The notes: generated by a model not told the origin, from the sequence alone. Positions 20,243-52,668 are shown, numbered from the stretch's first letter. The stretch is DNA of 64,000 bases from Candidatus Falkowbacteria bacterium (GCA_018674305.1 JABHAL010000004.1:128446-192445), one strand, 5' to 3'. Numbers and translations: made by a program.

Positions 20243-20274
20243 AAGTTTTCTATATTTAATTATTTATTATCTTA

Positions 20275-20661
20275 TTATTTAGTTGTTGCTGATGCAAGAT
20301 TTTGCACTACGAAACTGGAGATTGCATAAGCTGCTAAAATCAAGGCCAGGCCTATTACCGCATTTATTAACCATTGTTTCGATTTTTTTACTTGGTCCTC
20401 ATTACCGCCGGCCGTCATCCAGAGAAAACCTGCGTAAATGATTATTACTAGCACTACGACTCCCAGTAATGTTAGCACAATTTTGACGACATTACCAACA
20501 ATCTCAACTAAGTTTTTATCACTACTTGCATACCCCGCTTGAGTTTGAAAGTCGGTTAAACCCTTTGCTGTAGTTTTAGTTAAATCAACATCCATTGCCA
20601 TAGTCATTGTTGGCATAACCAATAAAGAACATAGCGTTAATATCACAAACAATTTTTTCAT
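20275..20661 (-). CDS. Pilin-like paralog 2 of 9
   Basis: Signal peptide plus core YAGFLWMTAGGNEDQVKKSKQWLINAVIGLALILAAYAI. Confidence 0.5.
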   Translation of the reverse strand: MKKLFVILTLCSLLVMPTMTMAMDVDLTKTTAKGLTDFQTQAGYASSDKNLVEIVGNVVKIVLTLLGVVVLVIIIYAGFLWMTAGGNEDQVKKSKQWLINAVIGLALILAAYAISSFVVQNLASATTK

Positions 20662-20687
20662 ACTAATTTTAATTATTTAAAATCTCC

Positions 20688-21065
20688 TTAAGTTGTAGTC
20701 GCTGCGAATAGATAACTAACTGCGAAATCAGCAATTGCATAGGCTGCTAAAATTAACGCCAGACCAATTACTGCATTTTTTAACCACTGTTTAGCTTTTT
20801 TCACTTGATCTTCATTTCCACCAGCACTCATCCACAAAAATCCAGCATAAACAATAATTACAACAGTTATTATGCCGACCAATGTTAATACTATCTTGAT
20901 GATATTACCAACGATATCTACTAAAGTTCCCTTACCTGTATATCCAGTTTTGTCTTTGAATGTTTCCATTTCCTTGACAGGATCACCACCAATTGTTGCT
21001 GCTGTAGCTACCAGGGGCATAGCAAACAGAGAACACAAAGTTAAAATTACAATTAAATTTTTCAT
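20688..21065 (-). CDS. Pilin-like paralog 3 of 9
   Basis: Signal peptide plus YAGFLWMSAGGNEDQVKKAKQWLKNAVIGLALILAAYAI. Confidence 0.5.
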   Translation of the reverse strand: MKNLIVILTLCSLFAMPLVATAATIGGDPVKEMETFKDKTGYTGKGTLVDIVGNIIKIVLTLVGIITVVIIVYAGFLWMSAGGNEDQVKKAKQWLKNAVIGLALILAAYAIADFAVSYLFAATTT

Positions 21066-21081
21066 ATTGATTTGATTTATT

Positions 21082-21489
21082 TTAGGTGGTTGTTGCTGTA
21101 ACTAAATAATCAACCGCAAAGTAGGCGATCGCATAAGCTGCCAAAGTTATAGCTAAACCAATTACAGCATTAGTCAACATTTGCTTTGCTTTTTTTACCT
21201 GGTCTTCGTTGCCACCTGCGGTCATCCACTGTACACCGCCCCAAACAACTAATATTACCATGATAATACCAAGTAAAGTTAAAATAATTTTAATTATACT
21301 ACCAACAATTGTAGGTAAATCTGCTTTTGGTTTATCTGCACCGTGTAAACCTTTACCTACATTACCCAATTCACCAAGTGGTCCATCCGCAGCCAAAGCA
21401 ATTCCACCACACAGAACAAAACTGAAACAGATTACTAACAAAAATGTTACTACTTTTAATGTAAATGGATTTTGACGTAAAAAATTCAT
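21082..21489 (-). CDS. Pilin-like paralog 4 of 9
   Basis: Signal peptide plus WGGVQWMTAGGNEDQVKKAKQMLTNAVIGLAITLAAYAI. Confidence 0.5.
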   Translation of the reverse strand: MNFLRQNPFTLKVVTFLLVICFSFVLCGGIALAADGPLGELGNVGKGLHGADKPKADLPTIVGSIIKIILTLLGIIMVILVVWGGVQWMTAGGNEDQVKKAKQMLTNAVIGLAITLAAYAIAYFAVDYLVTATTT

Positions 21490-21531
21490 AATTTTTTTGT
21501 ATAGAGTAATAAGTAAAGAGTAACAAGTGAT

Positions 21532-21568
21532 TACCTTTTACTTTTTACCTTTTACTTTTTACTTTATT
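21532..21568. repeat. 14-bp tandem repeat (taccttttactttt) x ~2.6 in the 77-bp gap upstream of paralog 4
   Basis: Read directly: taccttttactttt taccttttactttt tactttatt. Confidence 0.6.
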
Positions 21569-21971
21569 AAACTCCAGCTGCTGTACTAAGCTTCTCCACA
21601 AAATAATAAGCAATTGCATAAGCACCCATAGTTACGGCCATACCTAGCACACCTTCAATCAGCATACTTCGAGCTTTTTTCACCTGATCAGCATTTCCAC
21701 CAGCGGTCATCCAGGTGATTCCACCATAAACAACTATGATCACAAAAATAATTCCTAAAATTGAAGTTACAACTTTCAAAGCTTTACCAATTACACCCGC
21801 TGGATCAGCGGCTGTAGTACTAAATCCGGCGCCAGGCGCAGCAGCATCAAGACCTGCCTTGGCTTTGTCAGTAGCACCACTAGCAAAAACATTATTGGTG
21901 ATTATAGTTAAATTAAAAACCAATAAACTGATAATGATTGAAAATAATACTAATTTTTTAAGCATATTCAA
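21567..21971 (-). CDS. Pilin-like paralog 5 of 9
   Basis: Signal peptide plus YGGITWMTAGGNADQVKKARSMLIEGVLGMAVTMGAYAI. Confidence 0.5.
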   Translation of the reverse strand: MNMLKKLVLFSIIISLLVFNLTIITNNVFASGATDKAKAGLDAAAPGAGFSTTAADPAGVIGKALKVVTSILGIIFVIIVVYGGITWMTAGGNADQVKKARSMLIEGVLGMAVTMGAYAIAYYFVEKLSTAAGV

Positions 21972-21994
21972 TATAAATTAAAACCTCTAATAAA

Positions 21995-22378
21995 CTAAAG
22001 AGTCCCGGAAATCTTAGCAATTACATATGCAGTTAATTGGTATGCCATTAAGGTAACAACTAAACCAATCGCCGCATGGATCAAAGTTTTTCTTGCCTTT
22101 TCTACATTTTGCGGAGTACCTCCAGCGGTCATCCACATAATTCCGCCGTAAACAATCATAATTAGGAAAGCAATACTAACGTAGCCAAAAAAAACTCCAA
22201 TGTACTGACCAATAACCTTTTCAATTGTATTATCAGCTTTAGGCAATAAGCCCGGTTTTTCAGCTGCTCCTTTTAAACCATCCGCAAAATCGCCAGCTAT
22301 AGCTAAATTAGGAATAGCTAAAAAACAAATTCCGATCAATAATATAAAAACAATTAAAAAATATGAGTTTTTTTTCAT
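21995..22378 (-). CDS. Pilin-like paralog 6 of 9
   Basis: Signal peptide plus YGGIMWMTAGGTPQNVEKARKTLIHAAIGLVVTLMAY. Confidence 0.45.
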   Translation of the reverse strand: MKKNSYFLIVFILLIGICFLAIPNLAIAGDFADGLKGAAEKPGLLPKADNTIEKVIGQYIGVFFGYVSIAFLIMIVYGGIMWMTAGGTPQNVEKARKTLIHAAIGLVVTLMAYQLTAYVIAKISGTL

Positions 22379-22472
22379 AGAATCTTATTTCTAAAAAGCT
22401 TTCTTCTCATTAATTAACAATGTGTATTATTAACTAATGAGAAGGGCAGATAAATCTGCCCTTTAAACTTTT

Positions 22473-22877
22473 TTATTCGGTTGTTGCAGTAACTAGATTA
22501 GTGATTACAAAACTGGTAATCGCGTATGCGCTTAGAATAATTGCTACGCCTATTATACCAGAAACAATGTATTTCCTCGCTTCTTGTACTTTCTCATCGC
22601 TACCACCAGCTGTCATATATTTAAAGCCTCCGATCAAAACAATTACGATCGCGATCACACCCAAAAATCCAAGTGCAACTTTAATTATAGCTCCAATAGT
22701 TTCCTTCAAATCTTTATTTCCTAAATTTGTGTTGTCACCAACTGCGCCAATCCCAAATGGGTCTGGTGCTGGATCCTCAAGCGCCACGGCTGGTAAAGCA
22801 AATGTTGCAAGCATGAAAATTACTAGGAAAAGTCCCGCGAACATTTTGATTTTGTTTGTGTCTACGTACATGTGCAT
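22473..22877 (-). CDS. Pilin-like paralog 7 of 9
   Basis: Signal peptide plus IGGFKYMTAGGSDEKVQEARKYIVSGIIGVAIILSAYAI. Confidence 0.45.
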   Translation of the reverse strand: MHMYVDTNKIKMFAGLFLVIFMLATFALPAVALEDPAPDPFGIGAVGDNTNLGNKDLKETIGAIIKVALGFLGVIAIVIVLIGGFKYMTAGGSDEKVQEARKYIVSGIIGVAIILSAYAITSFVITNLVTATTE

Positions 22878-22913
22878 TTTCTTAATTATTAATTTTTTAT
22901 ATATATTAAATTA

Positions 22914-23285
22914 TTAAACTCCGAATTTAGAAATTATTGTACTTACTAGTATATAACTCATAAAAATGATAAATAACCCCAAAGCCGCCCAAATCATTGA
23001 ATGCTCGGCTGTCTTAATTCTTTTTTCATTACCGCCTGAGGTCATCCATATTATACCACTATAGATAAAAATCACCAAAGCAACTGTCCCGATTATCCCC
23101 AATGCCATACCAATAGCTTTTCCAATTAATGCATTAAAATCATCACTTTTAACAATTTCGTCACCAAACGTTGAATTAATCTTACTGGTAGCATCAGAAA
23201 TAGCATCCGCGTGAACAACAGCAATTGACACTACGAAAAAGAAAAAACATGAAAGCAATAAAACACCTACTATTTTTTTATACAT
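22914..23285 (-). CDS. Pilin-like paralog 8 of 9
   Basis: Signal peptide plus YSGIIWMTSGGNEKRIKTAEHSMIWAALGLFIIFMSY. Confidence 0.45.
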   Translation of the reverse strand: MYKKIVGVLLLSCFFFFVVSIAVVHADAISDATSKINSTFGDEIVKSDDFNALIGKAIGMALGIIGTVALVIFIYSGIIWMTSGGNEKRIKTAEHSMIWAALGLFIIFMSYILVSTIISKFGV

Positions 23286-23295
23286 ATTAAATAAT

Positions 23296-23661
23296 TTAGG
23301 AACCTGCTAAAACTTTTAATAAAGTCTTTATAAGAGCCCCTGATAAAAATATTATAACTAGACCAATAAAAGCATTTTTTAACATAGTTGTTGCCTTACC
23401 TATTCTTTCTTTGTTCCCACCAGAGAGCATATACATGATACCGCCAACTACAAAAACCAGAAGAGTAACTGATCCTGAAATTCCCAAAATGATCTGGGCA
23501 ACATTCGCAATAGTTTGTTCTACACTTCCTAGGTTGCATTTATCAACAGGAGCATCTCCTAAACATTCGCCGGGAACAATTGAAGGAAAGGCCAGTGTTG
23601 ATTGTCCAACCAGCAAACCAAAACTAATTAAAATAATTACAAATATAATTTGTTTTTTCAT
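23296..23661 (-). CDS. Pilin-like paralog 9 of 9 (most divergent)
   Basis: Signal peptide plus VGGIMYMLSGGNKERIGKATTMLKNAFIGLVIIFLSG. Confidence 0.4.
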   Translation of the reverse strand: MKKQIIFVIILISFGLLVGQSTLAFPSIVPGECLGDAPVDKCNLGSVEQTIANVAQIILGISGSVTLLVFVVGGIMYMLSGGNKERIGKATTMLKNAFIGLVIIFLSGALIKTLLKVLAGS

Positions 23662-26344: not shown

Positions 26345-26373
26345 TTGACAAAATGTTTAATTTACACTATAAT
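26345..26373 (+). promoter_or_regulatory. Consensus sigma70 promoter: TTGACA, 17 nt, TATAAT
   Basis: TTGACA at 26345-26350, 17-nt spacer, TATAAT at 26368-26373; SD GAGGGG and start ATG at 26417 follow. Confidence 0.65.
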
Positions 26374-26416
26374 AAACTGTCATTCGTTCTTTAAACTTTT
26401 ATACTCGAGGGGAAAT

Positions 26417-27145
26417 ATGGCGTATAAAGGCAAAAAATCAGTTCTAGCAGTAGATCTCCTTCCGGTAATTGGTTGGAAAAGGGTGGCCCTAATCAAGCGA
26501 GCCAAGTGGCCGTGCTTGGAAAAATTATGTATCGTTGGTGGTCATTTTGACGCAGATAATGAGCACAATGAAAACTTGCCTGAGCATGAGCGTAACTTGC
26601 CAGACATCAGTGTTCCACACGCTGCGCTACGCGAAGCCAACGAAGAAATTCATCTGGAAACAGTAACGCTTGAAGACCTGGTTGAGTGGTGTTGGCTTGA
26701 CGAGATTGGCCGTGATCCACGAGAAGAACAACCTGACGAAGATCGCCGAGTTTCCAAATGTTTCTTGGTTCACCTCGAATCAGAAGAAGCTCTTAAAGAT
26801 TGTTTTGCGGACTCAGACGCACTGGAACTGGTTATCTGCGACATTGATTCTTTGACCGAAGATGACATGGGATTTGACCACTGGATTGCAATCAAGAAAC
26901 TCCAGGCTGAAAAACAGCGACTTTGGGAGTTCTGGACCCAATTAAGTAGTCACTGTTTTACTCACAGGTGTGATGCTCTTATTACAGAAGAAAAGCTTCT
27001 GCAAGACGAATGCACTGCCGATACTCTAGATATTGCTTGGCACACCTCAGAGGGCAGAGCACAGCTCATAACTATGGGGATTGAAATGTTTATTGTAGCT
27101 TGTCCCTTCTGCGGACACAAAATTACTCCTCCAATTTTCTATTAA
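26417..27145 (+). CDS. Divergent Nudix-like hydrolase with C-terminal CxxC zinc ribbon; GC-rich relative to host
   Basis: Start reassigned to MAYKGKK (26417) behind a good RBS. Nudix-box-like ...HAALREANEEIHLE (RE-xx-EE); C-terminal CPFCGHK. GC visibly higher than the flanks. Confidence 0.4.
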   Translation: MAYKGKKSVLAVDLLPVIGWKRVALIKRAKWPCLEKLCIVGGHFDADNEHNENLPEHERNLPDISVPHAALREANEEIHLETVTLEDLVEWCWLDEIGRDPREEQPDEDRRVSKCFLVHLESEEALKDCFADSDALELVICDIDSLTEDDMGFDHWIAIKKLQAEKQRLWEFWTQLSSHCFTHRCDALITEEKLLQDECTADTLDIAWHTSEGRAQLITMGIEMFIVACPFCGHKITPPIFY

Positions 27146-30023: not shown

Positions 30024-31442
30024 TTATTTCAGTTTTACAAATTCCTGAATCGTTTCTTTTCTGATCCCGCCAAACAAATACAAAAACCCGAAGTAAACCA
30101 CTCCGGCAATCATTAACAAAATAAGAACATGCCAACTTCTCACAGAATACAAAACTCCAGACATAATTATAGCTGCTGGGATTGTCTTTAGAAATGTTTT
30201 TAGACTTGGGAAAAATTTTATTGCTCTATAGATAAGAACTGCGGTCCATATCATTATCAATGCTTCACTAAAAACGGTCATCCAGGCTGCACCCCAATAT
30301 CCATACTTTGGAATGAAAATAAAATAACCAACCAACGTCAATACTGCCACAGTTAAATATCCCCACATCATTGTTTTTTGTCGATTTACTGCTACTACCG
30401 CATAAGCAAATAAACTTGTCGCAAAAATTGCACATGACGCAAGGATCAAAACTTTCAAAATTTCACCTGATGGTATAAACTCCGCTCCGGCAATGAAAAT
30501 CATTATTTTTTCAGCAATCACAAAAGTTCCTATCGTTATTGGTACCGCAAAAATCATTAATGCGTCAAATGATTTCTGCAAAATCGCACGTAATTCTTTT
30601 TTATTCTTTTCTAAATAATATTTTGTGGCAATTGGTAAAACAATCCCCATAAATACAGCGGGGAGCATTGTCAAAATATCCACCACGCGATAGGTTGCGC
30701 CATACAAACCTACTTCCCCCTGACTTCTGAATAAAGATAATATAATAATATCCATTTTTAAATAAATCAGATTAAAAGAAATTGATAATGCAATCGGCCA
30801 AGTTTTACTGATCAATTCTTTCCAGATGGTAAAATCAAATTCCAGTCTCCATTTAATATATTTTTTCGAATACAAAAATACAATTACCAAATTAACAATA
30901 CTTCCAATTGACATTGCCCCAAATATCCAATAAATGTTCTTTCCTAACCAGGCAGCAAGAACAACTAAAGCAACAAAAACAACTCGACCAATAACTTCCG
31001 CTAATGTTAATTTGAACATTTTTAGTTTTTGCTGAAAGACTCCCGTTAAGGTTTGGATTATTGTAATACAAAAAAACGAAGCCACCGTTATAATTACGCC
31101 AAGCTTTATAAAAATATTATACGGGAAAAACCAAATTAAAATGGGCGCTAAAAGTAAAAAACAAAAAGCAGTAATAACTCTGAATGAAATAATGGAATTC
31201 ATAGTCCGGCTAATATTTACTCCGGGCTTAGAAATCATTTGTACTGTTGTTAATGTTAATCCGAAATCAACTAAAATTCCAAAAAACTGTAAAAATGCAG
31301 TTACCGTAATATAATAACCAAAACCTTCTTGCCCTAGATATCTCGCCATTACAGCTATAGCAACCAATCCTAAAATTAGGCTGATTAATTTACCAGCCAA
31401 GTGAATAACTGTATTTTTTGCAATTTGTTTATCAAGACTCAT
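30024..31442 (-). CDS. Polysaccharide biosynthesis / oligosaccharide flippase (Wzx/MOP superfamily)
   Basis: 472 aa, ~12-14 TM helices; N-terminal KNTVIHLAGKLISLILGL motif region typical of MOP flippases. Confidence 0.7.
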   Translation of the reverse strand: MSLDKQIAKNTVIHLAGKLISLILGLVAIAVMARYLGQEGFGYYITVTAFLQFFGILVDFGLTLTTVQMISKPGVNISRTMNSIISFRVITAFCFLLLAPILIWFFPYNIFIKLGVIITVASFFCITIIQTLTGVFQQKLKMFKLTLAEVIGRVVFVALVVLAAWLGKNIYWIFGAMSIGSIVNLVIVFLYSKKYIKWRLEFDFTIWKELISKTWPIALSISFNLIYLKMDIIILSLFRSQGEVGLYGATYRVVDILTMLPAVFMGIVLPIATKYYLEKNKKELRAILQKSFDALMIFAVPITIGTFVIAEKIMIFIAGAEFIPSGEILKVLILASCAIFATSLFAYAVVAVNRQKTMMWGYLTVAVLTLVGYFIFIPKYGYWGAAWMTVFSEALIMIWTAVLIYRAIKFFPSLKTFLKTIPAAIIMSGVLYSVRSWHVLILLMIAGVVYFGFLYLFGGIRKETIQEFVKLK

Positions 31443-31701
31443 AAAGAATAAGGAACAATAAAATTATAAATACCTACTATCTAAAATCTACCGCTTATAA
31501 CCTAATTCTACCATTAATCTATTTAATTTGAAATGCTCCAAGATTCCCGATGTCTTAATTTTGTCTAAAATTAAACAAAAAGTACTCTTTAACATTGACA
31601 AATAAAATATAATGTGTAAGATGTAGTGTCCTTTACATAAGGATTTTATTTATAGAAGGATCGTTAACAATGATGATTTCAAACTAAAAAGGAGGAACCC
31701 A

Positions 31702-32601
31702 ATGGCTAGAAAGAAGAGAGGTCGAGGTTTGTTTCGTAAAATTTGGGACAACATTATCAACGGCATCTTTGGCGAGGAAAACGTCAATGAGGCCACACTG
31801 GAAGAAGATTCCAGGGAAATGCTCGTTCAACTGGAAGCTAACCGAAGCTCAGTTTCCCAGACAATGGCTCTGTCTCTAGAGACTAGGGCTCGACTGGAAA
31901 CTGACGTTGCTCAGCTGGACGAACTCAAGAAGGCCATTAAGGTCTTTTTAGGTGCTGGCAAAACTACAGAGGCACAGCGACTTGCCCAGCAAGTTCTTAG
32001 CTTGCAAGGTAAGCTCGCGACGACTGCGACGCTGTATGAGAGCCAAAAGTCGGCAGCTGACAATGCTATTGTCACCTTCCGGACCAATGAGCAACAGGTA
32101 AAAACACGCTTGGAGAAACTGGAAAACCTCAAAGCTCTCCAGCAGATCAACAAGATCCGAGAACAAGTTCAAGCGGAACTGGTTGGCTTTAACATTGATG
32201 GCGCAGCACAGAGGTTTGACCAAATCGCTGGCAAAATCGAGCGTAAAGCTCTTCAGCTGACAGCTGGAGATGCTCTTGCTGATGTATCTGGCCAGCGGGC
32301 TGATCTTTCAATCAACAAACAGCTGGAAACTCAGAAAGTAGCTGGACTATTAGAAGGATTCAAGGCTGAGATGGCTTTGAGTGCTGCTACCGGTGAAACG
32401 CAAGTGATCGAAGGGCCTGCGAGCAAAGCGACTATGCTTCTGTCCTCGCCAGCTTTCGACTCCCTGGCTTTGGGTGATTTGACCCCGGCAAATGAACCAG
32501 AAACAATAGTTGCTCAAGCAGTTGAAGTTGAGGTGGTAGACACCAAGGCTGCTGATATTGATTCAACTATTGAAAATGCGGGTGAAAATACCCAAGAGTA
32601 A
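31702..32601 (+). CDS. pspA: PspA/IM30 (Vipp1) family membrane-stress protein
   Basis: Strong RBS AAAGGAGGAAcccaATG; coiled-coil protein collinear with PspA (ILG.F..L...IN.....ED.....L....E....V.....A.); GC ~48-50%. Confidence 0.7.
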   Translation: MARKKRGRGLFRKIWDNIINGIFGEENVNEATLEEDSREMLVQLEANRSSVSQTMALSLETRARLETDVAQLDELKKAIKVFLGAGKTTEAQRLAQQVLSLQGKLATTATLYESQKSAADNAIVTFRTNEQQVKTRLEKLENLKALQQINKIREQVQAELVGFNIDGAAQRFDQIAGKIERKALQLTAGDALADVSGQRADLSINKQLETQKVAGLLEGFKAEMALSAATGETQVIEGPASKATMLLSSPAFDSLALGDLTPANEPETIVAQAVEVEVVDTKAADIDSTIENAGENTQE

Positions 32602-32621
32602 AACCAAAGGGAGGCGTTGAT

Positions 32622-33377
32622 ATGAATTTTTCTAGGCTTCTACCATTTTTACCGGTAGCTGCCCTTACTCTCCCTGACTTCATTGCCTGGTACGGTGCAG
32701 GATATTTAGCCACGTTCATTCTTGGCTTGATGTTCCTAGTCCTGGCGGTAATGGGTGTCGGAGAGCATGACGCAGCAGCTGAACATGACCTTGATCACGA
32801 TATTGATCATGACATTGACGTGGAACACGACGTTGAAACTGATCATGACGTTGGTCACGAAAGTGAACATGACCACGAAGTCGAACAGGCTCACGGACTA
32901 ATGCACTCAATTCTCAATCTTTTGGGAATTGGTCGTTGTCCACTGTCCATCATTATGATGACGTTCCTTTTCCTTTTTACAGGGATTGGAATTGGTAGTC
33001 TATTGATTCTCAAGCCGATCACTTTCACGTCTGTCATTTTTGGAACAGTTTCCTATTCAGTAGCCTTCCTAGGTGCATTATTCTTGACTGGTTCAATTGC
33101 TCGATTAATCGGACGATATTTGCCAACCAAGGAAACCTATGTAAAAGGCACTGCCTCATTACACGGAAAAATCGGTAAAGCAAACTATGATTTTAGCGAC
33201 AACACTGGATTTTTCCAAGTCGTTGACGACAATCATACCATGCTGGAAAAAAAGGGTATTAACATTGACCCTGATAATCCAATCAAAGCTCGAGATTCTG
33301 TTCTGATTGTTACCTACAATAAAGAAAAGGGCTGTTTCTTGGTAAAGAAAGCACCCCCAGAACTAGTAAAATCATAA
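32622..33377 (+). CDS. NfeD-like membrane protein (flotillin partner) with His/Asp-rich insert
   Basis: TM helices; low-complexity EHDLDHDIDHDIDVEHDVETDHDVGHESEHDHE; C-terminal beta-rich OB-like GKIGKANYDF...IKARDSVLIVTYNKEKGCFLVKK; immediately upstream of the flotillin gene, as in yuaF-floT. Confidence 0.5.
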   Translation: MNFSRLLPFLPVAALTLPDFIAWYGAGYLATFILGLMFLVLAVMGVGEHDAAAEHDLDHDIDHDIDVEHDVETDHDVGHESEHDHEVEQAHGLMHSILNLLGIGRCPLSIIMMTFLFLFTGIGIGSLLILKPITFTSVIFGTVSYSVAFLGALFLTGSIARLIGRYLPTKETYVKGTASLHGKIGKANYDFSDNTGFFQVVDDNHTMLEKKGINIDPDNPIKARDSVLIVTYNKEKGCFLVKKAPPELVKS

Positions 33378-33445
33378 ATTACTGCTATTAATTTATAGTG
33401 GTCGTTTCTTTGTAGAGCCCATTCACTCAAATAGGGAGGAAAAAC

Positions 33446-35485
33446 ATGGGTTACATTCTTTGGTTGGTGGTATCACTGATTCTGGCAATTGGGCCGTTTT
33501 TGGCCCCAGCACTGATTCCCAAATTCGAGATGGGAGGCCTGGCGCAATTCATTATGATGGCCTTTGGGATTGTTTCCCTTCTCATTCTGGCGATTGTGGT
33601 AGTTATTACAAAACTCTACCGCAAAACGTCAGCCGACATGGCCTTTGTGCGAACAGGCATGGGCGGGAAAAAGATTATCCTCGATGGAGGTATCTTGGTT
33701 ATTCCCGTCATCCACAAAGTCATCGAGGTCTCTTTGCAGACCATGCGGCTAGACGTTAAACGTGCAGGCAGAGAAGCTCTCATTACCGAGGACTATCTGC
33801 GTGGCAATCTTGAGGCAGAATTCTATATCAAGGTTCAGCCTGCAGACGAGGACATCGTCAGTGCCGCTCGTTCACTTGGTGATCGCTCGGTTGATCCGGG
33901 AACCATCAAGGACCTGGTATTTGAGAAGCTGGTATCTGCACTACGAACCGTGGCTGCGAAGTCTACGCTTTTCGCACTCAACTCTGAACGTGAAAAGTTT
34001 GCGGACGACGTGAAGAAAGCCGTAACCGAGGACTTGACGCACAACGGTCTGACGCTGGAAACAGTTACTGTTTCTCAGTTGGACCAGGCTGACATCAAGG
34101 ACTTTGATGAATCCAACGTGTTCGACGCCCAGGGTCGCAAGCGCGTAGCTGAGATTACTCAGGCTGCCCGTGTCGTTACCAATAAACTGGAGCGTGACGC
34201 TGAGCGCGACATCAAGGACAAGGACGTTGAGACTCGCAAAAAGGTCCTGACTCTCGAACTCGACCAGAAAAGGGCCGAGGCAGAGCAGGGACGTGACGTA
34301 GAAATGGCCAACTCCGAAGCCAAGCGTAAGGCCGATGAATTCGAGATCGAGCAGCAGGAAATTGTTGCCAAGCGTGAGATCGGCAAGGATCGAGCAGTTG
34401 AGCTCGAGAACGTGGACAAGGCTCGGAAGGTTGAGATCGCTGAACGCGACAAGGAAGCCGCGATTATCGATGCCGAGAAGAAGAAGGAACTGGCTGACAA
34501 GGCCCGTGAGCAGGCTGTCCGTGTAGCCGAGGTTGGACGTGACAAGGCACAGGCTCTGGCTGACCGTGACAAGGAAATTGAAATCGCGGCCAAGGAAGAA
34601 GAGCGCGCCAAGGCTGAGTCTGCCCGACTGGCCGCTGAGGCTCTCCGTGAAACCAATGAGCAGGCTGTGAAGACCGTCGAGGTCGTCGAGGCTGCTAAGC
34701 GTGACAAAGAGCAGCAGATCATTGCTGCCGAAGCCGACGCAGAGAAGAACTACGTAACCCTTCAGCGTAAGGCTGATGCTTCTGCCTATGAAGTCAAGAA
34801 GGATGCTGAAGCTCGTAAGGAAGCTGCAGAAGCTGACTTCTCCGCCAAGGTCAAGGCAGCTCAGGCCGTAGAGGAGACTCTGAAACGTGAGGCAGCTGGT
34901 AAGCAAGCTGCGGACATGGTGCCTGTACAGGTCGGATCCAAGCAGGTCGAAGTTGATCGCGCAAGTCAGATGATTGTGGTCGACGTGGCTGCCAAGCAGG
35001 TCGAAGTTGACCGCGCATCCGTGACAGTGAAGGACGCTGAAGTTGCTGTGGAGCGTAAGGCTTTGGAGCAGAAGGAAGAGTTCGGCCGTGCTGGTATCGA
35101 CTTGCAGATCACTCTGGCCAAGATCGAGGCCATGAAGGAAGTGGAAATCGCCAAGGCCACGGCGCTCGGTACGATGCTGAGCAATGCGGAAATGACGCTG
35201 TTTGGGGATCCCACCTCTGCTGCGGACATCGTTGGTAAGTACAACAACGCCATGGGAATTGGGAAGTCTCTCGAAGGCTTTATGGCCAGCATGCCCGAGG
35301 GTAGCGCTGCTCGTAAACTGGTCGATGGTGTCGTTGAAAAGGTTGGTGGACTGGCCGAAGCAGTATCTGATCGGCTGACTCAGGATGCACCGGCTGATGA
35401 TGCTCCTGCAACGACCGCTGCTCCGACTCCGCCCCCGACACCTGCCAAGAAGGCTCCGGTACCGCCAGTTGATCCTGCAAAGTAG
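33446..35485 (+). CDS. floT: Flotillin-like SPFH/band-7 protein (FloT-like)
   Basis: N-terminal TM, SPFH domain (FVRTGMGGKKII...), then ~350 aa of EA-rich coiled coil and a C-terminal flotillin-type tail; GC ~55-58% versus ~33% flanks. Confidence 0.8.
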   Translation: MGYILWLVVSLILAIGPFLAPALIPKFEMGGLAQFIMMAFGIVSLLILAIVVVITKLYRKTSADMAFVRTGMGGKKIILDGGILVIPVIHKVIEVSLQTMRLDVKRAGREALITEDYLRGNLEAEFYIKVQPADEDIVSAARSLGDRSVDPGTIKDLVFEKLVSALRTVAAKSTLFALNSEREKFADDVKKAVTEDLTHNGLTLETVTVSQLDQADIKDFDESNVFDAQGRKRVAEITQAARVVTNKLERDAERDIKDKDVETRKKVLTLELDQKRAEAEQGRDVEMANSEAKRKADEFEIEQQEIVAKREIGKDRAVELENVDKARKVEIAERDKEAAIIDAEKKKELADKAREQAVRVAEVGRDKAQALADRDKEIEIAAKEEERAKAESARLAAEALRETNEQAVKTVEVVEAAKRDKEQQIIAAEADAEKNYVTLQRKADASAYEVKKDAEARKEAAEADFSAKVKAAQAVEETLKREAAGKQAADMVPVQVGSKQVEVDRASQMIVVDVAAKQVEVDRASVTVKDAEVAVERKALEQKEEFGRAGIDLQITLAKIEAMKEVEIAKATALGTMLSNAEMTLFGDPTSAADIVGKYNNAMGIGKSLEGFMASMPEGSAARKLVDGVVEKVGGLAEAVSDRLTQDAPADDAPATTAAPTPPPTPAKKAPVPPVDPAK

Positions 35486-35519
35486 TAGTAAGTACTACTA
35501 ATTACTAAGTAAAACCACA

Positions 35520-35556
35520 AGCTCCTGTTTGTAACTACAAACAGGAGCTTTTTTAT
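35520..35556 (+). terminator. Intrinsic terminator after the flotillin gene
   Basis: AGCTCCTGTTTG-taacta-CAAACAGGAGCT followed by TTTTTT. Confidence 0.8.
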
Positions 35557-35604
35557 TATAAAAATCCACTTCAACCCTTATGTATTTTACGACAAATAGC
35601 AACC

Positions 35605-35669: not shown

Positions 35670-36068
35670 ATGGCTGAAATAATTACTATTAGTGCTGTTT
35701 TAATTCTTGGAACTCTGCTTTATTGGCTTTCAACCAGAAAGTCCAGTTCACAAGCAAAAATCGGCCTAGAAATGATTGGTAATGAGGCGCTTAAAACCAA
35801 AGACCAGGTTCACGTTGATCTTAAAATTAGTTTGAGTATGTCTTTTTCTGCTACTACTATTAAATATGGATTAGTACGTCTATTGCAAGAAGTTCAAAAT
35901 AATACTAAAACAAGGATTATTAAACTACTTCAGCAATTATCTTTTGTTGAAGTAGATAATAATTTCGTTTTCACTGATAAAGTACGAACTGGCCTAAAAC
36001 CATTGTTTGACAGTTATGGACTTGAGATTACTAAGATCAAGGTTCATTTTGTCCGACAATCTAAGTAG
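35670..36068 (+). CDS. Hypothetical membrane-anchored protein
   Basis: 132 aa; N-terminal TM (ITISAVLILGTLLYWL) plus a soluble domain; no family recognised. Confidence 0.4.
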   Translation: MAEIITISAVLILGTLLYWLSTRKSSSQAKIGLEMIGNEALKTKDQVHVDLKISLSMSFSATTIKYGLVRLLQEVQNNTKTRIIKLLQQLSFVEVDNNFVFTDKVRTGLKPLFDSYGLEITKIKVHFVRQSK

Positions 36069-36077
36069 GGAGTCTCC

Positions 36078-36326
36078 ATGAAAATGTACTTTTTCATTTT
36101 TATAATAGTACTCATTGTAACTTTTGTTCAAGGAAGGTTTTTTAAAGGATCCACCCGCCCGCTTCTCCGAGCATTGATTTATGCTGGTCTTGCTTGCCTA
36201 GGAACATTTCTTTTTATAATTGGAATACAGTGGCTTTTGGGTCTACTACTAGTGGTAATTGCCATTATTGGTATATACTTTCTAATCAAGTTGAAATCTT
36301 CTATTAATGAAGAAAACGAAGAATAG
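36078..36326 (+). CDS. Small two-helix membrane protein, hypothetical
   Basis: 82 aa, two hydrophobic helices and an acidic C-terminus. Confidence 0.4.
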   Translation: MKMYFFIFIIVLIVTFVQGRFFKGSTRPLLRALIYAGLACLGTFLFIIGIQWLLGLLLVVIAIIGIYFLIKLKSSINEENEE

Positions 36327-36385: not shown

Positions 36386-36649
36386 TTATTTCATTGGATC
36401 ATGACCACCTTTGGACCAGGGATTACAACGAAGCACTCTATAAGCTGCCTTTGCCCCACCAACAAATACTCCATATTTTTCAATTGCCTGATAGCCATAT
36501 TCTGAACAAGATGGTTTATATTTACAATAGCCTCCCGGAAAATTATCCTTCAATGGGCCATGATCAAAAGACAGTGTACTTTGATAAATTTTTATCAACT
36601 TTAGAACAAAAATCCTAGGAAAATATTTTAAGTGATGGTTTAATTTCAT
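36386..36649 (-). CDS. yidD: Membrane protein insertion efficiency factor YidD
   Basis: GGYCKYKPSCSEYGYQAIEKYG...RCNPWSKGGHDP matches YidD; located in the rnpA-yidD position. Confidence 0.8.
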   Translation of the reverse strand: MKLNHHLKYFPRIFVLKLIKIYQSTLSFDHGPLKDNFPGGYCKYKPSCSEYGYQAIEKYGVFVGGAKAAYRVLRCNPWSKGGHDPMK

Positions 36650-37020
36650 AAAAGATTCAATTTTTTAAGAAGTCCAATTAGCTCAGTTTTAATTTCCCCA
36701 AGTTCTTTATGCTTTATACTTGGTTTAGTAATTATTAAACAATCATAATTTCCCTTGATCTGACTTTGCTCTCTTTGAACTATATTCCTAAGTCGCCTTT
36801 TTATTTTATTTCGCTCAGTAGCTCTTTTATCTATTTTATTATTTACAATAAATCCAAATCTATTATATTTAAGGCTATTATTAAATATTTTAACAATCAA
36901 AAATTTTCCAGCTATATTCAACCCTTTTTTTTGTTTAAAATCTTTGCCCCAAAAGGCATCAAATTCATTTTGCTTAGTTATTCTGTTTTCCTTTTTCAAC
37001 ATAATAGACTTTTTAAGCAT
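36646..37020 (-). CDS. rnpA: Ribonuclease P protein component
   Basis: Basic ~120-aa protein with an RnpA-like KRATERNKIKRRLRNIV region; follows rpmH and overlaps yidD (ATGA). Confidence 0.8.
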   Translation of the reverse strand: MLKKSIMLKKENRITKQNEFDAFWGKDFKQKKGLNIAGKFLIVKIFNNSLKYNRFGFIVNNKIDKRATERNKIKRRLRNIVQREQSQIKGNYDCLIITKPSIKHKELGEIKTELIGLLKKLNLL

Positions 37021-37097
37021 TACTAAATTTCTGGTTTCTTTTATTCAAAAAAGAAACCACTTATAGTGTAGCTTCTTTTCTATATTTGTTCCAGTTA

Positions 37098-37244
37098 TCA
37101 ACGGTCAGAAGAACTTAAGCTTGTTCTAGCTTTATCTCGTCTTCTCTTTAAAATTGATCGGCCGTTTTTAGTTTGCATTCTGGATCGAAATCCATGCTTT
37201 TTCAGCTTTTTCCGAATATTCGGTTGAAATGTTCTTTTTGGCAT
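37098..37244 (-). CDS. rpmH: 50S ribosomal protein L34
   Basis: Not in the ORF track (48 aa). Minus-strand translation [48 protein letters not shown] matches L34 (MKRTFQP...HGFR.RM.T..GR.VL..RR.KGR). Confidence 0.85.
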
Positions 37245-37367
37245 ATTTTTGTGCTAGATATTAACTTTCAAAAGTATACTTCTTTATTTTGTTTTTGTCA
37301 ATAGGCTAATATAGCTTGCTTTTTTTTTCAGACTATTATAAAATTTTCTCTAGAGCTACCTTCCACG

Positions 37368-37417
37368 TTATCAACATGATATTAACAGTTTAGTAACTTT
37401 TCAACAGCTTGTCCACA
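37368..37417. promoter_or_regulatory. DnaA-box pair upstream of dnaA (TTATCAACA at 37368-76; TTGTCCACA at 37409-17), the left part of oriC
   Basis: Each is 8/9 to TTATCCACA; lies in the rpmH-dnaA intergenic region. Confidence 0.5.
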
Positions 37418-37484
37418 TGTTAGTTGAGTGCTAAAATAAAAACAGTCCTCTACTATAAGTAATCTCTAATAAAAATAAAAAGCT

Positions 37485-38870
37485 ATGGAAGATCAAAATG
37501 AGCAACTTTGGTTAGCTGTTCTTGGTGAACTTGAACTCTCCTTAAGTAAAGCCAGTTTTACCACCTGGTTAAAAAATACTTTTATTATAAAAAATGATGA
37601 AGGATGTATTGAGGTTGGTGTGCCTAATACTTTTTCACAAGCCTGGTTAAAACAAAAATACCACCAACAGATATACAAGATTATTCAAACAAAAAGCAAA
37701 GAGAGAATTAAAGAAATAAACTATAAAGTTCAAAGCTTAAAATCTTACAACAAACAAATAGATGAATTAAAGAAAACTGTTTCTACTCAAGAACAAATCC
37801 CAGAAGCTACCCAAAATGAAGTTCTCGCTAAGCAAACAAAAAAACAAGGACTCAATGTTAAATATCTTTTCGACTCCTTTATTGTTGGTAAAGCTAATGA
37901 ACTAGCTCACGCTGCAGCTTTAGCTGTGGCTGAAAAACCAGGATTAACTTATAACCCTCTTTTTATTTATGGTGGTGTTGGATTAGGAAAAACTCACCTA
38001 CTACAATCCGTTGGGCATGCCGTTTCACAAAAAAATCCTGAAAAAAAGATCGTTTATGTAACTTGTGAACAATTTACCAATGACTTTATAAGTTCAATTT
38101 CTTCTGGCCAGGCTGTTCGTTTTAATAATACTTACCGTACTGCTGATGTTCTACTAATTGATGATATTCAATTTTTAACTGGCAAAGAAGGAACTCAAGA
38201 AGCTTTTTTTCATACTTTCAATGATCTTCATCAGAGAGATAAACAGATTGTTATAACTTCTGATCGTCCACCAAAAGCTATTTCTACCCTAGAAGATCGT
38301 TTATTATCTCGTTTTGAATGGGGAATGATTGCTGATATTTCTCAACCTGATCTTGAAACCAGAATTGCCATTTTGGAAACTAAATGCCAAGAAAAAGAAT
38401 TTTTATTAGAAAGAGACATTATTCAGTACATCACCTTGAATATTCAAAATAATATTCGTGAACTCGAAGGTGCCCTAAATAAGATTATTGCTTACCATCA
38501 ATTAAATAAACTTGAACCTACTCTAGAAAATATCAAAAAGATACTATTTTCAATTTCTGAATCAAGTAAAAAGGGTGGTGCTGTTTCTGCAAAACAGCTA
38601 ATTGATTTGGTTAGTGGTTTTTATGAACTATCACTGGACGATATTCTAGGTAAAAGTAGAGAAAAAAGATTAGCTTTTCCTCGCCAAATCATAATGTATC
38701 TCCTTCGTGAAGAATTAAGCTGTTCATATCCAATGATAGGAAGTGAACTAGGTGGTCGAGATCACACAACTGCTATGCATGCTTACGATAAAATTTCTAG
38801 ATTAATTGCTGAAGATGAAAAATTGCGTCAAGAAATAAATTTAATCAAACAAAAGGTATATTCATCTTGA
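37485..38870 (+). CDS. dnaA: Chromosomal replication initiator protein DnaA
   Basis: AAA+ Walker A GGVGLGKTHL; Walker B LLIDDIQFL; sensor and DnaA signature regions; C-terminal HTH domain. Confidence 0.95.
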   Translation: MEDQNEQLWLAVLGELELSLSKASFTTWLKNTFIIKNDEGCIEVGVPNTFSQAWLKQKYHQQIYKIIQTKSKERIKEINYKVQSLKSYNKQIDELKKTVSTQEQIPEATQNEVLAKQTKKQGLNVKYLFDSFIVGKANELAHAAALAVAEKPGLTYNPLFIYGGVGLGKTHLLQSVGHAVSQKNPEKKIVYVTCEQFTNDFISSISSGQAVRFNNTYRTADVLLIDDIQFLTGKEGTQEAFFHTFNDLHQRDKQIVITSDRPPKAISTLEDRLLSRFEWGMIADISQPDLETRIAILETKCQEKEFLLERDIIQYITLNIQNNIRELEGALNKIIAYHQLNKLEPTLENIKKILFSISESSKKGGAVSAKQLIDLVSGFYELSLDDILGKSREKRLAFPRQIIMYLLREELSCSYPMIGSELGGRDHTTAMHAYDKISRLIAEDEKLRQEINLIKQKVYSS

Positions 38871-38889
38871 TAAGTTGTGCATAACCATA

Positions 38890-39126
38890 TAAAAAAATGT
38901 CCACATTCTTGTTTATAACTTTTAGTCATTTCTGTTCATAAGTATTTCGAAATCACCAAAAGACCACTTATAAACATTTAAGGACTGTTCATCTACACCC
39001 ATGTCAACAGGGTTACGCAATGATTTTTTCAATAAACTAATTACAAAAAAGCACTTATCCACCCGTATCCACAGCCTTATTATTATTATTGTTTTTATAT
39101 ATATAGAATTATAAAAAAGAGAATCT
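38890..39126. promoter_or_regulatory. oriC core: DnaA boxes (aTGTCCACA at 38898; TTATCCACC at 39055; GTATCCACA at 39065) followed by an AT-rich unwinding element (39077-39125)
   Basis: Boxes read directly; (tta)n/(ta)n-rich tract lies immediately before dnaN; dnaA-dnaN intergenic position is typical of Firmicute-like oriC. Confidence 0.6.
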
Positions 39127-40482: not shown

Positions 40483-40570
40483 TGGTGCCTCGGGCCGGAA
40501 TCGAACCGGCACGGTTTATACAACCACTGGATTTTAAGTCCAGCGCGTCTACCAATTCCGCCACCGAGGC
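40483..40570 (-). tRNA. tRNA-Leu (anticodon TAA), CCA encoded
   Basis: GCCTCGGTGGCGGAATTGGTAGACGCGCTGGACTTAAAATCCAGTGGTTGTATAAACCGTGCCGGTTCGATTCCGGCCCGAGGCACCA; long variable arm; A73. Confidence 0.85.
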
Positions 40571-40602
40571 TTATTTAATGTAATGGATTGTCATGACTTG
40601 TT

Positions 40603-40645
40603 ATGGCTTGCCATTCGAAGCTCTGATGAAATACAGAGCGAAGAA
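40603..40645 (-). repeat. Conserved tRNA 3'-trailer element, copy b (after tRNA-Gly)
   Basis: CCA-TTCTTCGCTCTGTATTTCATCAGAGCTTCGAATGGCAAGCCAT. Confidence 0.6.
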
Positions 40646-40721
40646 TGGAGCGGGAGACGAGACTCGAACTCGCGACCTCAACCTTGGCAAGGTTGCGCTC
40701 TACCAACTAAGCTACTCCCGC
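40646..40721 (-). tRNA. tRNA-Gly (anticodon GCC), CCA encoded
   Basis: GCGGGAGTAGCTTAGTTGGTAGAGCGCAACCTTGCCAAGGTTGAGGTCGCGAGTTCGAGTCTCGTCTCCCGCTCCA. Confidence 0.85.
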
Positions 40722-40736
40722 ATAAATTTTTAATTT

Positions 40737-40984
40737 GATCGCAACCTTTTTAAATTCATTTGCGCTCTAACCAATCCCGATGATTTAGCAAAGCTAAATT
40801 TCGGGATCCCGACGAACAATGTGACGTCGGGACTAAGCTACTCCCGCATAATATTTTAAAAATCGCGCAACCTTTAAAAATTAATTTTTGTTTATTTGCG
40901 CTCTAACCAATCCCGATGATTTAGCAAAGCTAAATTTCGGGATCCCGACGAACAACGTGACGTCGGGACTAAGCTACTCCCGCA
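40737..40984 (-). repeat. Two tandem ~136-bp units (core 40758-40848 and 40894-40984, 1 mismatch). Each is a degenerate tRNA-Gly 5' half (GCGGGAGTAGCTTAGT...TTGGTTAGAGCGC) interrupted in the D-loop by a ~57-nt double-hairpin insert.
   Basis: Minus sense GCGGGAGTAGCTTAGT[CCCGACGTCACATTGTTCGTCGGG ATCCCGAAATTTAGCTTTGCTAAATCATCGGGA]TTGGTTAGAGCGC; lacks anticodon arm, T-arm and acceptor 3' end. Confidence 0.65.
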
Positions 40985-41030
40985 ATCAAATGTAAGGTCA
41001 TTATAGCAAAATTATTATGAATGTCAATAT

Positions 41031-41069
41031 AAAAAAAAGCCCCAGTAAGAGCTTTGTGTAAACTGGGAG
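41031..41069 (-). terminator. Intrinsic terminator for the minus-strand small ORF 41097-41291
   Basis: CCCAGT-loop-ACTGGG with T-run on the minus strand. Confidence 0.5.
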
Positions 41070-41096
41070 CTTTGTGATTTAATGTGGTAATGTAGG

Positions 41097-41291
41097 CTAC
41101 TTAAGCCAAGGGAAAGGATCCTTTTCCTTGGGTTCAATGAACGTCGTAAGAGGCTGAAAATCCGGCTTTATTTCCGGCGTCTGAATTCGTGCGAACTTTT
41201 TCCGTTCCATCTCCTCATGGACCAATGTCCTTCGCATGGTAGCAAGACCAACTCCAGTAAATTCGTTGTTTCCAAATTCATCTGCCATCAT
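41097..41291 (-). CDS. Hypothetical small protein (64 aa)
   Basis: ORF with its own terminator; no family recognised. Confidence 0.3.
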   Translation of the reverse strand: MMADEFGNNEFTGVGLATMRRTLVHEEMERKKFARIQTPEIKPDFQPLTTFIEPKEKDPFPWLK

Positions 41292-41353
41292 CCACCTCCT
41301 ATTATGTGAAAGTATTAAAATTATATAGAATAATTAATGTTTTGTCAAGGGCT

Positions 41354-41390
41354 AATAAAAAAGCTTCAAGTGGTGTGCTTGAAGCTTGGT
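41354..41390 (-). terminator. Intrinsic terminator for ORF 41403-41648
   Basis: AAGCTTCAAG-tggtgtg-CTTGAAGCTT with minus-strand T-run. Confidence 0.55.
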
Positions 41391-41402
41391 TTGTTGTTTG
41401 TT

Positions 41403-41648
41403 CTATAGTTCTCTCAGAAACTCGTTTTCTGTTATTTCTGCTCTTACCGCTAATGGCTTTTTATCAAAGGGAAGTTTTTCTTTGGCAACCTTTGCCGGTG
41501 CACTCAAGTGATCTGCCCTTTTTACAGCCATTGCTTTGGTGGTTGGATCAATAGGATCTTCTCTGAATGTATTCAGAACCAGATCTTCTGCTCGGTCTTT
41601 CATCCTTTGATCATGGTGTCTACGAAAGGTTTTGTCTCTCATACTCAC
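41403..41648 (-). CDS. Hypothetical small basic protein (81 aa)
   Basis: ORF with terminator; basic; no family recognised. Confidence 0.3.
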   Translation of the reverse strand: MSMRDKTFRRHHDQRMKDRAEDLVLNTFREDPIDPTTKAMAVKRADHLSAPAKVAKEKLPFDKKPLAVRAEITENEFLREL

Positions 41649-41764
41649 TCCTCCCCAAGGTTTCCAGCGATTGTACTTCAGAGTATATCAGAAGAAATAT
41701 AGGTTGTAAATATTAGAAAAAGAAAAAGCTCCAGTCGTGAGAGACTAGAACTTTTTGTGTTCAT

Positions 41765-42016
41765 TTAAGGAGAAGACATTGTAGCCAGAACTGCTTCATC
41801 ACGGGCTTGTCTGACATCAAAGGGAATAACTTCCAGTCCCTTCTCAATGTCCAATTCAGAGCCTGTTCCGCAGTGGAATACATGTATTCTTGAAGCTATA
41901 TTTGATTTTTCAAGAATTCCTATCAGGTCATAAACAGCTTCAGTTTTAGTAATAATCACTTCTCTACTTCCTCTGCCTTCGATATAAAATCTAATGCAGT
42001 ACATGAGTACCTCCAT
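41765..42016 (-). CDS. Hypothetical small protein (83 aa)
   Basis: ORF directly upstream of the second tRNA-Leu; no family recognised. Confidence 0.3.
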   Translation of the reverse strand: MEVLMYCIRFYIEGRGSREVIITKTEAVYDLIGILEKSNIASRIHVFHCGTGSELDIEKGLEVIPFDVRQARDEAVLATMSSP

Positions 42017-42036
42017 TTAAAGTTTGAGACAATTAG

Positions 42037-42120
42037 TGCCGGATGCGGGATTTGAACCCGCACGGGAATTACCCCAAGGGATTTTAAGTCCCCAGTGTCT
42101 ACCAGTTCCACCAACCCGGC
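42037..42120 (-). tRNA. tRNA-Leu (anticodon TAA), second divergent copy; no CCA encoded
   Basis: GCCGGGTTGGTGGAACTGGTAGACACTGGGGACTTAAAATCCCTTGGGGTAATTCCCGTGCGGGTTCAAATCCCGCATCCGGCA; long variable arm; A73. Confidence 0.75.
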
Positions 42121-52240: not shown

Positions 52241-52570
52241 ATGAGTGATAATAATATCATTGAATTCCCTAGTCAAGAAGAGGAAGCGCCGTTTGCGGTT
52301 TGTACAGATTGTAAGCATTTTCAGAATGCCGAGTTTCATTCACCAAGAAGAGATTGTTGGTACAATCATTTTTGTCTGGTACAGGATTTGCCTACCGCCA
52401 GAGATCCGTATGATGGTAAAGTTAAGTCATATAAAGTTGGATTTGGTGGGCAGAAAGTATTTTCATATCAGCAACATCCAAATTGTCATGACGTAAATAA
52501 TGATGGGCGTTGCGAATATTTTGAATCACGTCAAAACTTTTGGCGATGGTTGTACGCTGATGCTGAGTAG
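52241..52570 (+). CDS. Cys/His-rich small protein, putative metal-binding, hypothetical
   Basis: CTDCKHF...RRDCWYNHFC...HPNCHDVNNDGRCEYF; RBS GAGGAGATAAtcATG. Confidence 0.45.
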   Translation: MSDNNIIEFPSQEEEAPFAVCTDCKHFQNAEFHSPRRDCWYNHFCLVQDLPTARDPYDGKVKSYKVGFGGQKVFSYQQHPNCHDVNNDGRCEYFESRQNFWRWLYADAE

Positions 52571-52580
52571 GGAGGGTTTT

Positions 52581-52646: not shown

Positions 52647-52668
52647 ACTTTGCTGAAAGGAGAAGGTT

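Follow-up and report, generated by a model that had tools for sequence, protein, structure and literature searches.

A pspA-yqiJ-flotillin operon near the replication origin of Candidatus Falkowbacteria has the composition of a genomic island and may be an old resident

Is a sharply bounded block of GC-rich genes in an AT-rich bacterial genome necessarily a recent import? This question is raised by a locus of Candidatus Falkowbacteria bacterium, a member of the Patescibacteria (Candidate Phyla Radiation, CPR), where three consecutive plus-strand genes encode a PspA/IM30 protein (pspA, 31702..32601, 299 amino acids (aa)), a YqiJ-like polytopic membrane protein (yqiJ-like, 32622..33377, 251 aa, DUF1449, an NfeD-like partner) and a YqiK-type flotillin (33446..35485, 679 aa). 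All positions refer to the window, i.e. the whole stretch of 64,000 nucleotides (nt) that was analysed (GCA_018674305.1, JABHAL010000004.1:128446-192445). The original prediction had described the trio as a horizontally acquired membrane-integrity cassette. Our results speak against this proposal, as the locus is conserved, synonymous divergence (dS) is like that of core genes, and neither signatures of mobility at the locus nor a close donor were found. With modest confidence, we rather favour an old resident operon that has been inherited vertically and whose GC-ending codons are probably preserved by translational selection. Neither recent transfer nor slow amelioration is a likely explanation, and an ancient exchange between Patescibacteria and high-GC bacteria or phages is possible.

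The compositional break itself is clear, and the predicted GC-rich block in an AT-rich background was borne out when sliding-window GC and codon usage were computed. The window has about 34% GC overall. Across 31700-35500 the GC fraction in 200-nt sliding windows is 0.47-0.61, versus 0.23-0.39 in the flanks, with a drop to 0.36-0.40 at 32900-33400 that corresponds to the 3' half of the yqiJ-like gene. The step up is located exactly at the pspA start codon and the step down exactly at the flotillin stop codon. Non-coding DNA has 27% GC in the 200 nt upstream, 29% in the 150 nt downstream and 35% in the 68-nt spacer between yqiJ and the flotillin gene. The GC content and the GC content at third codon positions (GC3) are 0.485 and 0.455 for pspA, 0.424 and 0.386 for the yqiJ-like gene, and 0.544 and 0.580 for the flotillin gene, compared with an expected GC3 of 0.28-0.29 when the host codon table is applied to each protein's own amino acids. 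The remaining 56 open reading frames (ORFs) of the window have a mean GC3 of 0.283 (standard deviation 0.051), and the lowest values belong to rnpA and dnaA, which adjoin the island. Amino-acid composition accounts for about half of the GC excess: coiled coils rich in Ala, Glu, Asp, Arg and Val raise GC at first codon positions, and Ala makes up 13.4% versus 6.7%, with Glu, Asp and Arg also higher. The other half, approximately, consists of GC-ending synonymous codons, at a level that is specific for each gene. For the flotillin gene, the summed excess is divided into 0.27 from positions 1 and 2 and 0.30 from position 3.

Two further observations concern composition. The long antisense ORFs of the island share the codon register of the sense genes, as is to be expected where TTA, CTA and TCA codons are rare; they are Leu/Ser-rich by-products, and an overlapping antisense gene was rejected. 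They had been thought to occur only in the island, but antisense ORFs are also present elsewhere in the window. Moderately elevated GC3 (0.39-0.45) was also seen for the PspC-domain gene (60722-61042) and the genes for a NUDIX protein, a VIT-VWA protein and a 199-aa hypothetical protein, located at 26345-27145, 48158-50512 and, in L095, 19846-20445.

The original prediction had suggested that related genomes might lack the block at this position. Instead, it occupies this position in four diverged lineages, with a shared context of wzx, pspA-yqiJ-flotillin and yidD-rnpA ... dnaA in the same order and orientation, and in every syntenic lineage the trio is 1-8 kb from dnaA. For a resident block, all relatives had been expected to share the locus and to have host-like composition there; the locus is indeed shared, but the composition is not host-like, the relatives' trios being GC-rich too. 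GC3 for pspA, yqiJ and flotillin is 0.45, 0.39 and 0.58 in the window (flank ~0.28), 0.70, 0.59 and 0.76 in L008 (flank 0.41-0.64), 0.67, 0.63 and 0.78 in L010/L011 (flank 0.27-0.39), and 0.75, 0.64 and 0.89 in L096 (flank 0.19-0.29). The order flotillin > PspA > YqiJ is found in all four lineages. GC-richness in all of them points to upkeep of GC-ending codons and not to a fading import. Between the lineages, host proteins share 77-80% (DnaA), 56-68% (Wzx) and 43-58% (RnpA) identity, and the trio proteins 49-60% (flotillin), 39-53% (YqiJ) and 36-51% (PspA). A scan of metagenomes revealed no further syntenic lineage.

The search for a donor, for which high-GC Actinobacteria or Chloroflexi had been suggested, did not return a close one. 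Exact protein matches occur in Candidatus Falkowbacteria metagenome-assembled genomes (MAGs; MBT7348605.1 and others). Apart from the sister strain described below, no homolog more than 60% identical to the window flotillin was found among 5.8 billion proteins, and the nearest homologs constitute a subfamily of about 15 sequences with 49-60% mutual identity, all others being at most 46% identical. Outside the clade the best matches are 53-56% identical. At 53-54% identity, outside homologs were found in groundwater MAGs of 71% GC (L009) and in a phage-like contig of 61% GC (L012/L013), where a yqiJ-yqiK pair (L012 5749-8476, L013 2466-5193) encodes a flotillin 53% identical to that of the window. 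According to PHROGs, this contig also encodes, on one strand, a helicase with a Hint/intein domain, an exonuclease, a Sak4-like annealing protein and a DNA methyltransferase. Scanning IMG/VR gave only more distant flotillins, on seven contigs (35-40% identity). Another yqiJ-yqiK pair, at 54% identity, belongs to a 36% GC MAG (L014/L099) with the possibly doubtful label 'uncultured Gammaproteobacteria'; its neighbours encode DUF5656, SmpB, IF3 and an AI-2E transporter. The yqiJ-flotillin pairs in L009, L012/L013 and L014 are not accompanied by pspA, and L097 has the trio in another context and with host-like composition. The most extreme case inside the clade is L096 (4894-8504), with a flotillin gene of 65% GC in a genome of about 32% GC and strongly C-ending codons (GCC 0.71, ACC 0.84, ATC 0.91). 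Its best database relative is 56% identical, and none above this value was present among the same 5.8 billion proteins.

A sister strain gives the closest comparison. It is the sole relative without pspA and yqiJ, and it lost both by a 2.1-kb deletion. Contigs from three samples (L005 1-2212, L006 664-3999 and L007) have the same junction, where window position 31536 is joined to about 33669 with AAGATT microhomology and wzx directly precedes a truncated flotillin gene. The missing interval (31537..33668, ~2.1 kb) takes with it the promoter candidate, pspA, yqiJ and about 75-83 N-terminal flotillin codons, and the remnant flotillin gene is an intact ORF of 597 codons. This partial absence is secondary, the result of a microhomology-mediated deletion. 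Flotillin dS between window and sister strain is 0.66, equal to that of core genes (dnaA 0.66, dnaN 0.69, wzx 0.62), indicating that the gene has co-diverged with the chromosome, and dN/dS is 0.10. The two flotillin genes are alike in GC3 (window 0.58, sister strain 0.61). Third-position changes between AT and GC are symmetric (85 versus 72) because both strains have similar GC3, and this pair by itself is too close to rule out slow decay. Four independent assemblies of the window's own population are identical over 22 kb, and thus contain no polymorphism to polarise.

The deeper lineages are more informative in this respect. At conserved residues of host genes, four-fold sites differ by 0.50-0.70 between these lineages, full randomisation corresponding to 0.62-0.73. 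Host four-fold sites are therefore near saturation, and the ancestral composition must be mostly erased. Four-fold GC in the flotillin gene is nevertheless still high (0.49, 0.71, 0.87 and 0.78 in the four lineages, versus 0.13-0.35 for host genes), so plain amelioration fails as an explanation. It is a tentative proposal that an AT-rich Patescibacteria clade has kept an origin-proximal operon at high synonymous GC (GC3 up to 0.89 versus ~0.25) through synonymous saturation and without recent transfer. In the window, the GC-ending fraction in two-fold codon families is 0.65 for flotillin, 0.46 for PspA and 0.42 for YqiJ, against a background of 0.236±0.061 (n=72) in which the next-highest gene encodes ribosomal protein S15 (0.40). 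In four-fold families, PspA (0.31) and YqiJ (0.32) are host-like (background 0.274), and Ala, Gly and Arg in the trio keep the host's T-ending choice (GCT, GGT and CGT). The window with 10 kb added on each side includes a single ribosomal gene, that of S15, plus genes for rubrerythrin and SOR, neither of which is GC3-rich.

The explanation that composition alone would suggest is a recent island from a high-GC donor, still ameliorating. The atypical composition and codon usage agree with it, as does the presence of high-GC organisms among the nearest homologs beyond the clade. We consider it very improbable, since the same locus is occupied in four lineages near synonymous saturation, dS equals that of host core genes, a close donor and mobility signatures were both not found, T remains the favoured ending of Ala, Gly and Arg codons, as in the host, and the only relative without pspA and yqiJ is explained by the deletion. 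An alternative that accommodates the conserved position is repeated acquisition in situ, with the wzx/yidD junction acting as a hotspot for fairly recent, independent cassettes from unsampled high-GC bacteria or phages. Such a hotspot would fit with the neighbouring polysaccharide gene cluster, clusters of this kind being often recombinogenic. It would also fit with the wide variation of flotillin GC3 (0.58 to 0.89) and the different codon flavours among lineages, with codon usage in L096 that resembles that of L098 (65% GC), with the grouping of P0004 with P0013 in a neighbour-joining tree, with flotillin identity that is hardly greater in the clade than to outsiders, and with the existence of a 61% GC phage-like contig bearing the gene pair at 53% identity. 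However, an import recent enough to account for GC3 of 0.89 should have a near-identical source, and no donor above 56-60% identity was found for the window or L096 copy among the 5.8 billion proteins. Moreover, order, orientation and flanks are the same in the four lineages, the high-GC homologs outside have no pspA, dS matches the flanks in the sole close pair, neither mobility genes nor repeats were found at the locus, and NfeD (YqiJ-like) identity is clearly greater inside the clade (47-53%) than outside (35-42%). Repeated acquisition is thus unlikely in our opinion.

Somewhat less likely still is a cause at the nucleotide or RNA level, such as a stable, structured or nuclease-resistant stress mRNA, a function of a GC-rich block as DNA next to oriC, a repair bias restricted to particular genes, or biased gene conversion. 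In L096, L010 and L008 the enrichment concerns all codon families and any G or C, the distance between block and dnaA is 1-8 kb in every case, with transcription toward the origin, and YqiK-family flotillin genes have a GC3 above the median of the ORFs around them in nearly every one of 35 loci (L014-L093), which span many phyla, although the backgrounds rest on ORFs that were called crudely, in high-GC genomes, and are indicative only. For flotillin genes of other Patescibacteria the excess over neighbours is +0.09 to +0.32. On the other hand, GC rises only in coding frames, non-coding DNA is AT-rich and rnpA and dnaA have the lowest GC3. With adjoining genes and spacers that are AT-rich, biased gene conversion and an influence of the DNA region were rejected. 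The excess in the window lineage is, in addition, specific to codon families. An old resident operon with selected codons has its own difficulties. The ribosomal comparison is limited to one gene, S15, and the flotillin gene is far above it. A GC3 of 0.89 at about 32% genome GC, in L096, exceeds the usual effect of codon selection, and the enrichment there extends to four-fold families, like the usage of a high-GC organism. The flotillin of L014 has host-like GC3 (0.30), so GC-rich codons are not intrinsic to the family. The neighbour-joining tree joins the window sequence to P0002, and this pair to P0005 and P0009, but places P0004 with a non-CPR sequence, and is therefore no clean proof of a single origin. 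Finally, flotillins of the clade are hardly more similar to each other (49-60% identity) than to outsiders (48-54%).

The identities of PspA and the 679-aa flotillin were confirmed with Pfam profiles. PspA matches PF04012 (PspA_IM30) with 41.1 bits (E 2e-10; curated cutoff 33.9 bits), residues 32-208 aligning with positions 27-197 of the 220-position profile. The N-terminus of the protein is basic/amphipathic, whereas its C-terminal tail is acidic. Its only match to a solved structure, a weak one, is Synechocystis Vipp1 (sll0617, 8qfv, E 0.0098), and a search of NCBIfam gave no match. A word-indexed homolog search found only the protein's own cluster, the index being too insensitive, and the comparison of PspA proteins is thus limited to the loci that had already been collected. 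The flotillin matches PF01145 (Band_7) with 74.4 bits (E 1.6e-20) and is composed of an N-terminal hydrophobic hairpin, an SPFH domain (66-247), a long Ala/Glu-rich coiled coil and a Pro/Ala-rich tail. It is a full-length homolog of E. coli YqiK, with 34% identity over 452 aa (E 1e-66), its profile matches the SPFH domain of human Flotillin-1 (E 8e-8), and its homologs carry YqiK or flotillin names at their sources. The FloT equivalog of NCBIfam is not reached (47 bits versus a cutoff of 700), and the window protein is flotillin-like, not a FloT ortholog. A repeat had been noted within this gene as a tandem duplication of about 57 bp. The repeat exists, but consists of two in-frame direct copies of 26 nt (34938-34963 and 34992-35017, plus strand, in 34938..35017), 25/26 identical, with a period of 54 nt, coding KQVEVDRA twice; Tandem Repeats Finder (TRF) makes no call. 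It is an old structural repeat, because the QVEVDR pair is conserved in the relatives P0001 and P0002.

The middle gene was predicted to encode a membrane protein with a His/Asp-rich low-complexity insert and an NfeD-like OB tail. A YqiJ-type identity is well supported: the protein matches PF21001 (YqiJ_N) with 33.9 bits (E 4e-8, cutoff 23), the same domain is present in the relatives' proteins, and hhalign with a 9-sequence profile aligns residues 94-229 with residues 55-191 of E. coli YqiJ (E 2.4e-5, probability 75%), a colinear match that takes in the C-terminal soluble part, although the pairwise BLASTP match to E. coli YqiJ is weak (E 0.033). The OB tail was confirmed neither by profile nor by predicted structure. 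The NfeD OB domain (PF01957) gave no Pfam match in the window protein at E values up to 10, one relative scores for NfeD at E 0.13, the profile search against the PDB found no NfeD structure, and the C-terminal region has a pLDDT of about 35 in a single-sequence AlphaFold2 model. The His/Asp-rich stretch (HDxDHDIDHD...) is real and encoded by degenerate repeats of 12, 18 and 30 nt (32783..32895, plus strand, TRF). However, all relatives have it, which makes it a characteristic of the family instead of an insert.

The three plus-strand genes, strong Shine-Dalgarno sites and strong terminator of the original prediction were all found, and the arrangement is that of a single operon as far as sequence signals can tell. 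AGGAGG or GGGAGG lies 7-8 nt before each of the three starts (AGGAGG at 7 nt for pspA). A sigma-70-like promoter candidate, TTGACA-16-TAAGAT (31595..31622, plus strand), lies within an AT-rich upstream region and was recognised by consensus match only (10/12), and a putative intrinsic terminator (35519..35550, plus strand) combines a perfect 15-bp stem, a 2-nt gap and a T-run. Between promoter and terminator there are only three genes. The trio (31702-35485) is transcribed toward the origin region (dnaA at 37485) and hence probably meets the leftward replication fork head-on, in contrast to the genes in 1-31 kb, nearly all of which are on the minus strand.

The trio could form a membrane-maintenance module in which the flotillin would be a scaffold with its own N-terminal hairpin anchor, the YqiJ/YuaF-type membrane protein the flotillin's usual partner, and PspA/IM30 the ESCRT-III-like polymer. 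By analogy with pspA-ydjGHI of B. subtilis, flotillin and YqiJ would form a platform that probably brings PspA to stressed membrane or organises it there. GC-ending codons have probably been selected for efficient or accurate translation of these presumably abundant, stoichiometric scaffold proteins, and the operon would have become fixed between wzx and yidD-rnpA-dnaA in the Candidatus Falkowbacteria clade and passed on by vertical descent.

Neighbourhoods of PspA with band-7/flotillin and YqiJ/YuaF/NfeD proteins have already been described (PMC11237479, PMC9239133). Ravi et al. (2024, PMC11237479) reported a CesT/Tir-PspA-flotillin-AAA+-YqiJ operon, and Popp et al. (2022, PMC9239133) a PspA, band-7/FloT and NfeD neighbourhood in Acidobacteriota. 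The window operon is like these systems in combining PspA, a YqiJ-like protein and a membrane-anchored SPFH/flotillin protein with a long coiled coil in one operon. It differs by the absence of genes for a CesT/Tir chaperone, an AAA+ ATPase or phospholipase D (it is bordered by wzx and by a pair of small ORFs that match no family), and by its Patescibacteria host, fixed origin-proximal locus and gene-specific GC3 excess. The predicted resemblance to the yuaF-floT pairing holds: the partner gene is followed by the flotillin gene, as in E. coli yqiJ-yqiK and B. subtilis yuaF-floT, but here the pair is preceded by pspA, and the flotillin is longer (679 versus 553 aa) with an additional Pro/Ala-rich tail. 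The best mechanistic analogy is B. subtilis pspA-ydjGHI (samGHI), in which PspA also shares an operon with SPFH and membrane proteins and the SPFH protein YdjI is required for PspA membrane foci, recruitment of PspA depending on this protein together with its membrane partners (PMC8581546). In contrast to the window flotillin, which has its own membrane anchor, YdjI is a soluble SPFH protein, and YdjG and YdjH (zinc-ribbon and TPM-type) are unrelated to YqiJ. With classical genomic islands the trio has in common the sharp compositional break and atypical codon usage, but not the rest, as its locus is deeply conserved, its dS is core-like, and mobility machinery and donor were not found. Unlike ameliorating transferred genes, its GC3 is not relaxing toward host values.

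The gene combination is therefore known, and the unusual part is a persistent GC3 island limited to coding sequences, for which we can only infer the cause. The locus adds a minimal PspA-YqiJ-flotillin operon from Patescibacteria to the known class, and suggests that small-genome CPR bacteria invest in membrane maintenance based on ESCRT-III and flotillin. It is also a cautionary case: any compositional detector would call recent horizontal gene transfer here, and synteny, dS and donor searches disagree. If our favoured reading of an old resident operon is true, the textbook compositional signature of such transfer can be a stable, vertically inherited trait, and an unusually strong gene-specific force, selective or otherwise biased, must act on synonymous sites. 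Codon selection is commonly assumed to be weak in such organisms. Should selection indeed maintain the GC-ending codons, the four lineages with their graded GC3 would be a natural system to study synonymous-site selection in CPR.

On the left, the operon is flanked by the gene for a Wzx-type polysaccharide flippase (wzx, 30024..31442, minus strand), the neighbour in all four lineages, which belongs to a Wzy-GT4-Wzx polysaccharide cluster. On the right is the origin region, with yidD and rnpA on the minus strand and dnaA on the plus strand (36386..38870), then dnaN. DnaA-box-like sites at 37368-37417 and 38876-39073, together with a minimum of cumulative GC skew at ~31-39 kb, show that the operon is origin-proximal. 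At the island edges no tRNA, integrase or other mobility gene, att site or flanking direct repeat was found. Two family-less ORFs follow the terminator at 35670-36326, behind a promoter-like site of their own, and encode a 132-aa protein whose N-terminus has a transmembrane segment and a membrane protein of 82 aa. In L005 and L008 this position is taken by ORFs of similar size; they are diverging fast, the sister-strain versions being 76% and 51% identical. Downstream of dnaN, the region 40483-42120 contains two tRNA-Leu(TAA) genes 1.5 kb apart, a tRNA-Gly(GCC) gene beside the first, and several ORFs of 64-90 aa.

A PspC-domain gene and a second flotillin elsewhere in the window had been taken as part of an envelope-stress theme. 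Both genes are real, the PspC domain at 60722-61042 being recognised with E 5.5e-18, but the second SPFH protein (52669-54720, 683 aa) is unrelated in sequence to the trio flotillin. Its Band_7 domain (318-532) lies behind a long family-less N-terminal region, a 109-aa ORF precedes its gene (stretch 52241-54720), and its candidacy as a paralog of the trio flotillin was rejected (E 0.11). On the minus strand, 19838-23661 is a tandem array of about 10 small genes (121-135 aa), and both of those tested match T4SS_pilin/TrbC. The region 10860-16606 carries four ATP-grasp (RimK/YheCD-like) genes, one of them fused to a Zn-protease-like domain, and this cluster adjoins a gene for a PKD plus 7TM_transglut membrane protein.

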